From Deltaproteobacteria bacterium (GTDB lineage: Bacteria > Desulfobacterota > Syntrophia > Syntrophales > JAFGHS01), in the NCBI GenBank assembly GCA_016928025.1, contig JAFGLN010000047.1, positions 32,335-96,334 of the forward strand: a DNA stretch of 64,000 nt. The letters are read 5' to 3'. Shown piece by piece: positions 51,535 to 58,304 of the stretch; within the stretch, counting starts at the first letter, position 1; the number at the start of each line of letters is the position of its first letter. Under the pieces are notes generated by a model. That model worked only from the letters and a program-made list of their open reading frames with translations. It was not told the origin of the DNA and did not search any database. A program made the translations under genes and the position numbers.

Positions 51535-52731
51535 ATGGCAGGTGTATACAAAGCGGTCAAGGTCACGGATAACGTCTACTGGGTCGGTGCGATCGACTGG
51601 AATTTACGGGATTTTCACGGGTATACCACCAAAAGAGGAAGTACCTATAACGCCTATCTCATTCTGGCCGACAAAATCACCCTGGTCGATACGGTCAAGG
51701 CGCCGTTTAAAGACGAAATGATGCAGCGCATCGCCTCCGTTATCGATCCGGCGGACATTACCTACATCGTCTCAAATCATTCCGAAATGGATCATACGGG
51801 CTGCCTGGCCGAAACGATGGAAGCCGTAAAACCGGAGAAGGTTTTTGCTTCCATCATGGGCGCAAAAATCCTTCAGGAGCATTTCTCTTTCAGTCAGGAG
51901 ATCACGCCGCTCAAAGACGGAGAAACCCTAAGCCTCGGCAATAGGACTCTCTCTTTTATGGAAACCCGGATGCTCCATTGGCCGGACAGCATGTTTTCCT
52001 ATCTGGCGGAAGAGGAACTGCTGTTTTCCCAGGACGCCTTCGGCATGCACCTGGCCACGGCGGAACGATTCGACGACGAAATTGATCCCGCTATTTTGTA
52101 CTTTGAAGCGGCCTATTATTACGCCAACATCCTCCTGCCCTACTCGGCTCTCATAACCAAACTGCTCGAAAAGGTGGCCGCATCGGGCCTGACATTCAAG
52201 TTTATCGCCCCCGATCACGGCCCCATCTGGCGAACCGACAGGGAGACCATCATCAAGTCCTATGCCGGATGGGCGGCCCAGAAACCCACAAACAAAGCCG
52301 TTGTCGCCTACGGGACCATGTGGCACAGCACCGAGAAAATGGCTGGAGCCATCTGCGAGGGACTTAAAGAAGGCGGCGCGCATGCCATATTAATGAATAT
52401 GGACGCGTTTCACCGAAGCGATATCATCTACGAGCTCCTCGAAGCAGGCGCCCTGATTGTCGGATCGCCGACGTTAAACAATAACATGCTTCCGATCGTT
52501 GCCGACGTGATGACTTATCTGAAAGGATTGAAACCGCAAAACCTGATCGGCGCAGCTTTCGGATCTTACGGCTGGAGCGGCGAGGCGGCCCGGCAGGTCC
52601 AGGAGATTCTGAAAGACATGAAGGTCGAGCTGGTTGAAGAGCCGATCCGGGCAAAAAATGTTCCCAACGAGGATGTCCTGGCGCAATGCCATGCCCTGGG
52701 GAAAACCATTGCGGAGAAACTAAAGGCATGA
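51535..52731 (+). CDS. fprA: flavodiiron protein (FprA/ROO A-type flavoprotein)
   Basis: GSTYNAYL, NHSEMDH, HWPDS, SQDAFG, PDHG, GSYGWSG. Confidence 0.93.
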   Translation: MAGVYKAVKVTDNVYWVGAIDWNLRDFHGYTTKRGSTYNAYLILADKITLVDTVKAPFKDEMMQRIASVIDPADITYIVSNHSEMDHTGCLAETMEAVKPEKVFASIMGAKILQEHFSFSQEITPLKDGETLSLGNRTLSFMETRMLHWPDSMFSYLAEEELLFSQDAFGMHLATAERFDDEIDPAILYFEAAYYYANILLPYSALITKLLEKVAASGLTFKFIAPDHGPIWRTDRETIIKSYAGWAAQKPTNKAVVAYGTMWHSTEKMAGAICEGLKEGGAHAILMNMDAFHRSDIIYELLEAGALIVGSPTLNNNMLPIVADVMTYLKGLKPQNLIGAAFGSYGWSGEAARQVQEILKDMKVELVEEPIRAKNVPNEDVLAQCHALGKTIAEKLKA

Positions 52732-52807
52732 GAAGCCAGCCATATGAAAAAAATTCCGAAATCGTAAAGATTAAAGAGCAAAGAGCATTTGAAAGGAGGG
52801 AAATTTT

Positions 52808-52966
52808 ATGCAGCGTTATGTTTGTGGTGTCTGTGGTTACGTTTACGATCCCGCCGAGGGCGATCCGGACGGCGGAATTCCCAAGGGGGTCGCATTTGAA
52901 GACCTGCCGGATGACTGGACATGCCCCATTTGCGGCGCTGAAAAGAGTGAGTTTTCGCCCGAATAG
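52808..52966 (+). CDS. rubredoxin (52 aa; not in ORF track)
   Basis: Hand translation [52 protein letters not shown]; AGGAGG RBS. Confidence 0.97.
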
Positions 52967-53006
52967 AAGTGCAGGCATAGAAACACACCGATATTGAGAG
53001 GATTCG

Positions 53007-53501
53007 ATGAGCAAAACAAGGGATGCCTTGCATAAGGCCTATGAGGGTGAGGCGAAAGCGGCGCTCAGGTTAAAGGTTTTCGCGGAAAAGGCAAGCCAGG
53101 AAGGCTATAAACAGATCGCCAAATTATTCCGTGTCATTTCTTTTTCCGAAGAGGTGCACGGCGCGAGAGCGCTTCGGGTCCTTAAAGATATTAAAAGCAC
53201 CGAAGAAAATCTCACGGAAAGCTTCAAAAACGAACGAAATATCGCCGGTGTTGCTTATGATGCCTTCATCAAGCAGGCCGAAGAAGAAGGAAACAAAGCC
53301 GCGGTCCTTCATTTCAGCCAGAGCCGCGACGTTGAAGAGATTCACGCGAAGTTGTATAAAGAAGCGCTGGATCACTTAATGGAGGACAGAGAAACAACCT
53401 ATCATGTGTGCAAGGTGTGCGGCTATGTCGCCGACGGACATCTGCCCGATGTCTGCCCCATTTGCAACGCGCCCAAAACAAAGTTTGTTCAGATAGATTA
53501 A
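53007..53501 (+). CDS. rbr: rubrerythrin family protein
   Basis: AYEGEAKA, SEEVH, VEEIH diiron motifs; C-terminal CKVCGY...CPIC. Confidence 0.9.
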   Translation: MSKTRDALHKAYEGEAKAALRLKVFAEKASQEGYKQIAKLFRVISFSEEVHGARALRVLKDIKSTEENLTESFKNERNIAGVAYDAFIKQAEEEGNKAAVLHFSQSRDVEEIHAKLYKEALDHLMEDRETTYHVCKVCGYVADGHLPDVCPICNAPKTKFVQID

Positions 53502-54698: not shown

Positions 54699-54730
54699 CC
54701 TTGGACCTTGCTCCTTGAACCTTGCTCCTT
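54699..54730. repeat. heptamer tandem repeat (CCTTGNN)x4
   Basis: ccttgga ccttgct ccttgaa ccttgct cctt. Confidence 0.75.
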
Positions 54731-55040
54731 ATTTAATAAACACCGGCTCTCCCAGAATGGGCATATTGCCGCTTTTCAAGGTATTAATAATAATCTCCGG
54801 CGTCGTCATTTCGTCGTCGTAAATTACCAGGACTTCTTTTTTCCCCACCAAGCTGTAATTGATCAAGCCTTTTACTCTTCTGAGGATAGAACCTAACCTC
54901 CGGTTACCACCTCAAGACAAACACCCGGGAACGGTTATTTGCATTTTCCTTTCTGCCGACCAGGCGGGAGCATTGAAGAACAGGGAAGAAAAAAATACCG
55001 ATAAAACCATCAAAAGGAAAAGACATCTTACGTTTTTCAT
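54729..55040 (-). CDS. probable secreted selenoprotein with CxxU motif, HMA/MerP-like (103 aa; not in ORF track)
   Basis: Hand translation MKNVRCLFLLMVLSVFFSSLFFNAPAWSAERKMQITVPGCLSUGGNRRLGSILRRVKGLINYSLVGKKEVLVIYDDEMTTPEIIINTLKSGNMPILGEPVFIK; TGA at 54914-54912; frame stays open for 60 further codons; GGGGG RBS-like tract. Confidence 0.75.
54882..54900 (-). promoter_or_regulatory. candidate bacterial SECIS hairpin
   Basis: GAGG-T-TAG-GTT-CTA-T-CCTC starts 11 nt after the TGA and its apical loop begins with G. Confidence 0.6.
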
Positions 55041-58262: not shown

Positions 58263-58304
58263 CCTTGAACCTGGATCCTTGCACCTTGAACCTTATACCT
58301 GCCT
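58263..58304. repeat. heptamer tandem repeat (CCTTGNN)x6
   Basis: ccttgaa cctggat ccttgca ccttgaa ccttata cctgcct. Confidence 0.75.

Follow-up and report, generated by a model that had tools for sequence, protein, structure and literature searches.

A mis-annotated small gene of Syntrophia very likely encodes a CxxU selenoprotein with predicted export and a predicted HMA fold

We found, on the minus strand of the window (the whole 64,000-nucleotide stretch analysed here), a conserved and mis-annotated gene of 103 codons whose one in-frame TGA, at codon 43, very likely encodes selenocysteine (Sec), as judged from sequence comparison. The initial annotation had proposed a hidden secreted selenoprotein at this place, and a Sec-containing protein is supported by a TGA/Cys column among the relatives, a hairpin kept behind the TGA, the presence of Sec genes, and Cys-only copies in genomes without selA and selB. 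About 70% of the sampled genomes of the class (213/301) carry this selenoprotein gene, which appears split, truncated or read with Trp in the databases and has no NCBIfam model. Syntrophic bacteria of this class are central to methanogenic sediments and digesters. The CxxU, CxU, CxC, CxxC and Sec-only forms of the protein make up a natural series on one 75-residue domain, and this series provides a small test system for the role of Sec in HMA domains, as a metal ligand or as a redox catalyst.

The gene extends from 55040 to 54729 (minus strand) and translates as 103 residues, with the sole in-frame TGA at 54914–54912, 60 further sense codons and a TAA stop. The 103-codon frame is absent from the plain ORF list, in agreement with the initial annotation, which had described an ORF missed by that track with 60 sense codons past the TGA. 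The sequence after the TGA is conserved, and its changes fall mostly at third codon positions in all eight of the pairs compared; this bias, together with the relatives in 213 of 301 genomes, argues against a chance frame. An RBS-like GGGGGA tract lies 5' of the ATG (55052–55047, minus strand), as had been claimed, and a purine tract of this type precedes 94 of 108 non-redundant matches, by a loose pattern scored without a control. Residues 1–28 (54957–55040, minus strand) form a predicted Sec-pathway signal peptide, read from the sequence as a basic start, a long hydrophobic core and A-W-S↓A; AlphaFold places the signal helix at residues 2–21. The initial annotation had left the cleavage site between AWS↓A and WSA↓E. 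Ala is found at position 28 in at least 90% of a 30-row alignment, and because it is conserved at this column, cleavage after S28 (AWS↓A) is favoured. Among the TGA members, a Tat motif occurs in 0/97 and a lipobox is absent from 96/97. The mature part would then be a domain of 75 residues (54732–54956, minus strand). Directly 3' of the gene, four AGGNNCA heptamers (54702–54729, minus strand) begin at the stop codon. The genome of the window (G000, about 89% complete) holds 36 separate arrays of this kind, and 18 of them follow the end of a long ORF on the same strand. Of 3000 random positions only 4% do so, and of the 692 among them that fall outside long ORFs, 9%, so that the resemblance to other gene ends noticed earlier is real; the array is a genome-wide repeat and not part of the function of the gene. 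A second array is present in the window at 58280–58293 (minus strand). A promoter and terminator scan returned no minus-strand site.

The query matches 213 of the 301 genomes sampled from the class, G000 included; in a sample of 401 genomes of the phylum it matches 19. The family is therefore concentrated in one order, and named records of close relatives belong mostly to Smithellaceae, Syntrophaceae and Syntrophales; the tree likewise puts G000 into one order with genomes that encode near-identical proteins. A word-indexed protein search with the query alone gave no match; relatives were recovered by HMMER and alignment searches. The 129 loci collected reduce to 108 distinct proteins, or 107 once a canonical GMTCxxC protein (L134) is left out of the family counts. 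In these 107 non-redundant relatives, the motif column reads TGA in 100 (L103, L132 and L133 classed by eye), Cys in seven and TGG in none. Trp or Arg at the column of codon 43, named beforehand as an observation that would count against Sec, was thus rejected for all DNA examined, which carries TGA or Cys and never TGG. Eleven database relatives do show W at the Sec column, in protein records without their DNA; one of them (P0004) differs from the product of a TGA-bearing locus (L034) at one other position only, so the W is probably a reading of the gene caller. In other database entries the product is split, as in P0002, P0018 and P0024, whose sequences correspond to halves of L005 and L006. 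TGA also terminates many genes of the CxxU family. A few members (L090; P0007) have a C-terminal extension of about 80–110 residues with two further Cys, and four loci (L132, L133, L155 and L156) carry Sec without its partner Cys, the last two being Sec-only copies situated about 3.5 kb apart on one contig (C47) of genome G712. In a tree of 61 rows, built on only 88 columns and with many open forks, the Cys forms branch within the Sec clade at some five points, and we claim nothing on the order of events beyond this apparent placement.

A SECIS-type hairpin covers codons R48–L53 (54900–54882, minus strand). It starts 11 nt after the TGA and has a loop that begins with G, as the initial annotation had described; the loop reads G-U-U, with its G at position 23 when the U of UGA is counted as 1, a position shared with three fdhA genes of G000. 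Its conservation is seen at the level of synonymous codons: in the 97 TGA members, the codons of the R-I-G-S-I-L segment after Sec use hairpin-forming synonyms, with Arg written AGG in 92/97, whereas of the 280 Arg codons in the rest of these genes only 37 are AGG. The mean hairpin energy of these members is −6.4 kcal/mol versus −1.2 kcal/mol after synonymous recoding, and 90/97 beat 95% of their recodings; the mean for the seven Cys forms is −2.7 kcal/mol. Over 81 distinct sequences, 97% of the cells pair, versus 35–48% with slid partners. Covariation is thin, since a double-sided change is present in only three cells. The published SECIS model (PMC13188914) requires a loop of 3–9 nt with G in first or second place, a stem of 4–16 bp, a distance of 16–37 nt from the UGA and an energy of −7.5 kcal/mol or lower. 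The geometry here, with a 3-nt loop starting with G located 19 nt from the UGA, lies within this model and is kept in the 81 distinct relatives; the family median is −7.1 kcal/mol for the 18-nt core alone. The hairpin of the window gene has one U-U mismatch and, taken in isolation, an energy of −6.4 kcal/mol, which misses the limit of the same model; it is weaker than in most relatives, 10% of its synonymous recodings fold as well, and a competing fold at −13.5 kcal/mol pairs the UGA itself. Readthrough may be less efficient in this gene than in its relatives. A geometric SECIS screen of G000 recovered the window gene, selD and the three fdhA genes, and with 1078 of 66185 in-frame TGAs passing, it is too loose to serve as sole proof. 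An Rfam scan produced chance-level matches only.

The machinery for Sec insertion, which the initial annotation had asked to be confirmed, is all present in G000: the genes selA, selB and selD exceed the curated cut-offs with 598, 377 and 391 bits, and an in-frame TGA occurs in selD as well. The tRNA-Sec gene (selC), with anticodon TCA, lies in two pieces at the ends of contigs C34 and C69, which overlap; this is why linear tRNA scans miss it; the C34 part alone scores 51.8 bits against an Rfam gathering score of 47. The selB gene (G000:C81:29208–31103) is located on the contig of the window, about 1.2 kb before the window start. Across genomes, the residue at the motif is linked to the Sec trait. 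Counted by eye among the 150 matches listed of 253, 14 copies lack the TGA, and ten of these accompany, as second copies, a TGA copy listed for the same genome. The remaining four belong to G005, G072 and G203 (98, 98 and 91% complete), which have only Cys copies among the matches listed and in which selA and selB are both absent; these three genomes are not independent, because they represent one genus. Three further genomes without selA and selB (G071, G006 and G020) have no family match. TGA copies without a selA match occur in G059 and G197, two fragmented genomes in which selB is present, and in G214, G204, G242 and G273 (69–88% complete), where the search was for selA only. Where selA and selB are absent, Cys takes the place of Sec, which shows that a sulfur or selenium atom is needed at this position.

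Several other selenoprotein candidates are encoded in G000. Two paralogues of about 500 residues, near position 6743 of contig C53 (L157:88–1593, minus strand) and near position 40680 of contig C115 (L158:75–1577, minus strand), are each read through a TGA that lies in frame within a UxxC motif common to both and is followed by a hairpin. They gave no Pfam match at E 0.001 and no NCBIfam match at E 1e-20, which makes them candidates for a selenoprotein family not yet catalogued, one that may be of greater novelty than the CxxU gene itself. A DsbA-like UxxC protein and a CoA-disulfide-reductase-like protein (L159:48–659 and L160:41–1375, both minus strand, contigs C124 and C53), each with an in-frame TGA, are known selenoprotein types. 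The three formate dehydrogenase alpha-like genes (G000:C57:44934, C73:18568 and C101:106615), recognised by motif, combine a TGA with a hairpin whose G stands at position 23.

The mature domain has a predicted HMA fold of the ferredoxin-like MerP/CopZ type, and the HMA-like domain of the initial annotation is upheld by profile, model and fold searches. The family profile, searched against the PDB, finds MerP, CopZ and the N-domains of CopA, with E values of 3e-12 to 2e-8 for the CopA N-domains and MerP. The query alone matches one NCBIfam model, that of MerP, weakly (20.9 bits), and MerP is the best NCBIfam match for all 30 aligned members; the Pfam HMA model (PF00403) is matched at E ≤0.1 by 17 of these 30, the query not among them. 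The AlphaFold model, computed with U as C from the 30 rows, has a pLDDT of 87 and consists of the signal helix followed by a ferredoxin-like domain. Its top Foldseek match is MerP (1osd, E 2.4e-4), and VIA ranks HMA domains first, with the HMA domain of CCS at a Z-score of 10.8 and an rmsd of 1.6 over 71 aligned residues. Rdx is found neither in Pfam scans of the 30 members nor among the fold matches listed, which are filled by HMA domains. In the model, C40-x-x-U43 sits in the loop that joins strand 1 to helix 1.

The position of Sec within the HMA motif was determined by ungapped counting anchored on the conserved Gly after helix 1, rather than by structural superposition. In this register, canonical HMA domains read G0-M1-T2-C3-x-x-C6, whereas the family has G0-C1-x-x-U4 in 88 non-redundant members and C1-x-U3 in outlying ones; C1-x-C3 is found in 31 database proteins, and in L132 and L133 U3 stands alone. 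The Cys preceding Sec, Cys40 (54921–54923, minus strand), is invariant in the 30-row alignment and corresponds to the Met of GMxCxxC, an assignment that the HMM alignment likewise makes. The canonical site, with Cys at 3 and 6, is absent: position 6 is mostly Ala, Ser or Gly, and 95/97 TGA members have no Cys after Sec. The residue three after Sec is Ser in 34/88, which gives UxxS. Judging from these alignments, Sec most likely matches, and would descend from, the first HMA Cys, with the second Cys lost and a new Cys replacing the Met. The earlier suggestion of a CxxC whose second Cys has become Sec thus stands for the HMA relation and fails for the mapping.

The neighbours were tallied by tblastn over the 107 loci. 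In 69 of them, the gene is situated between divergent maf/yggS upstream and convergent manC downstream; 20 loci have neither. The gene looks monocistronic, and, in line with the initial annotation, no metal-resistance gene adjoins it, its neighbours being of housekeeping type (maf, manC). In G000, at 89% completeness, we found no hgcA, no merT and no MerA over the cut-off, and a link to mercury methylation was dropped for want of hgcA; an ordinary copZ-copA pair is present at another location. Two genes away from the CxxU gene, the window contains a flavodiiron-type protein and a rubrerythrin (51535–53501, plus strand), a pairing that is not conserved in relatives. More varied settings, some of metal or metalloid type and others of redox type, are seen elsewhere in the family. 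The CxC sister group (L146–L154) lies downstream of ZraS/ZraR-like sigma-54 two-component genes in six of nine metagenome loci and beside ArsA in three of the nine, counts that come from close kin and are not independent; two regulators and one kinase scanned at these loci have ZraR and ZraS as best matches, below cut-off. This group also adjoins zinc-ribbon protein, TauE, DUF2703 and C-GCAxxG-C-C genes. One CxxU copy (L090) faces an ArsP/SaoE-like permease, three others (L056, L057 and L064) stand beside MoaE-like, DUF134, NifX-like and Mrp/NifU genes, and a molybdopterin oxidoreductase gene follows one of the Cys copies. Redox-type neighbours of outlying copies are rubrerythrin (L124), thioredoxin (L132), a peroxidase (L057) and a disulfide oxidoreductase (L125). 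A conserved intergenic motif, present in 38 of 83 upstream regions (for example those of L009, L010, L015 and L020), combines back-to-back −35-like hexamers with an AATT-N3-AATT palindrome; shuffled controls reach at most 6 in the 10 shuffles listed, and kinship inflates the count. This motif, which may be a divergent promoter or operator, is absent from the upstream region of the window gene.

For the function, the reading that we prefer, at roughly even confidence, is that the protein would act in the periplasm, where its Cys40 and Sec43 would bind a soft metal or metalloid ion of the Cu(I), Hg(II) or As(III) type. The preference is based on the predicted fold, on the metal-type neighbours of several subgroups and on the Sec already catalogued in HMA domains, namely UxxC in P-type ATPases and UxxU in NF041115 (PMC13188914, Table 1). 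SelB would bind the hairpin and insert Sec at the UGA, as expected from established knowledge; the Sec translocon would export the chain, and removal of the signal peptide would leave the 75-residue HMA-fold domain. The predicted binding loop would be C40-x-x-U43, between strand 1 and helix 1, with the selenolate as the main ligand and Cys40, which is missing from some relatives, as the second. The protein would work alone, as a standing buffer or carrier, and not within a mer or cop operon. Against metal binding, the usual HMA site is not intact, because the second canonical Cys is missing and 95/97 members have no Cys after Sec; in addition, the main locus has housekeeping neighbours only, the search of G000 (89% complete) gave no hgcA, no merT and no MerA over the cut-off, its ordinary copZ-copA pair is found at another place, and other relatives sit by redox genes.

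The same loss of the second Cys, the existence of Sec-only forms and the placement of the motif make a second reading come close behind metal binding. It has an appreciable, though smaller, probability and supposes that the HMA scaffold serves a redox catalyst of thiol/selenol type in the periplasm. Sec43 would be the attacking residue, towards disulfides or peroxides, and Cys40 the one that resolves the selenenylsulfide, in the manner of the CxxU of SelW/Rdx. SelW carries its CxxU after the first strand, and the motif of the model lies at the equivalent place, between strand 1 and helix 1. The UxxS found in about two-fifths of the CxxU members and the rubrerythrin, thioredoxin, peroxidase and disulfide oxidoreductase genes beside outlying copies point the same way, and most uncharacterised CxxU selenoproteins are considered likely redox proteins (PMC13188914). 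The redox neighbours are, however, single cases in varied contexts, the main locus has no conserved reductant partner, and the leading structural matches are HMA domains, with no thioredoxin fold among the matches listed. We put forward more tentatively, as a somewhat doubtful extension, that a selenoprotein family spread over the order and not yet catalogued would have rebuilt its HMA scaffold, with Cys for Met and the second Cys lost, into a SelW-like periplasmic CxxU redox centre, that is, a convergent selenol oxidoreductase.

ZraP serves the ZraSR two-component system. By analogy, the protein could be a periplasmic accessory or sensor subunit, or hand over selenium or metal to an envelope enzyme or a two-component system. 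The position of the CxC sister group behind ZraS/ZraR-like genes, the three or four CxxU copies beside MoaE-like, DUF134, NifX-like and Mrp/NifU genes, and the Cys copy before the molybdopterin oxidoreductase are consistent with such a role, but the main locus offers no such partner in 69/107 cases and no partner protein was identified, which makes it improbable. That the TGA is a true stop or Trp, and the locus a pseudogene or two fragments, is very improbable: the split database products, the 11 W-containing relatives and the weak hairpin of the window gene would fit, yet 100 relatives share the TGA and the only other residue in this column is Cys, the third-position bias and the conserved hairpin extend past it, TGA ends many genes of the family, and the W is probably owed to the gene caller, as seen for P0004 and L034.

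Several known systems come close to the protein. A full-text literature search found no paper describing the CxxU family; BSepDB or bioRxiv supplements may already label some members 'putative mercuric reductase'. The BSepDB supplement includes Smithella and Syntrophus among the screened genomes, and a term search of the main text of PMC13326102 and PMC13745706 gave no match. The 'MerP' entry of PMC2398784 is an unrelated-looking short read, and the search also took in passages of bioRxiv 10.1101/2022.07.06.499078, PMC1976440, PMC9312934 and PMC11672702. No NCBIfam family is matched at its cut-off, those of MerP, NF041115 and NF045683 all being far from reached. Like MerP (TIGR02052; PDB 1osd and 1afi), the protein has a signal peptide and one HMA domain; unlike it, it has no GMTCxxC and no adjoining merT or merA, and it scores 20.9 bits (TGA-read members at most 48.6 among the matches listed, and at most 55.5 among ten relatives) against a cut-off of 92.55. 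CopZ, Atx1, domain I of CCS and the metal-binding domains of CopA share the predicted fold, with Z-scores of about 9–11, and the profile matches CopA domains. Those chaperones and CopA domains are cytoplasmic and carry CxxC, in contrast to the protein described here, and G000 has its separate canonical copZ-copA. The MerT/CopZ fusion selenoprotein NF045683 is likewise of a heavy-metal transport type, and its CopZ part is weakly matched; the family reaches at most 31 bits among the matches listed versus 375, its 103 residues with only a signal peptide leave no MerT membrane part, and no MerT was found in G000. SelW/Rdx (PF10262) has in common the CxxU motif and its placement after the first strand, but Pfam scans of 30 members contain no Rdx match and the predicted fold is that of HMA domains. 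A known relative in kind is NF041115, a 'putative mercuric reductase' or metal-binding (seleno)protein with UxxU, which is also a small predicted selenoprotein of HMA fold from anaerobic deltaproteobacteria, with Sec in the place of the first HMA Cys or beside it; the deep-Sep supplement (PMC12013277) contains signal-peptide-bearing selenoproteins under this name with U at position 3, one of them with the motif PGITUGGS. Compared by eye with the one representative printed there, its motif is M1-T2-U3-x-x-U6 versus C1-x-x-U4 here. With U scored as C, the NF041115 model does not match the query, and the family scores at most 26.5 bits among the matches listed and at most 28.8 among ten relatives, for a cut-off of 95. 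In the tree, which contains no Sec-bearing NF041115 member, the Cys-form matches of this model fall with the canonical HMA proteins (100/97) and outside the CxxU clade (98/93). Secreted HMA selenoproteins are thus already catalogued, as NF041115, and the CxxU form described here stands outside the curated families tested.
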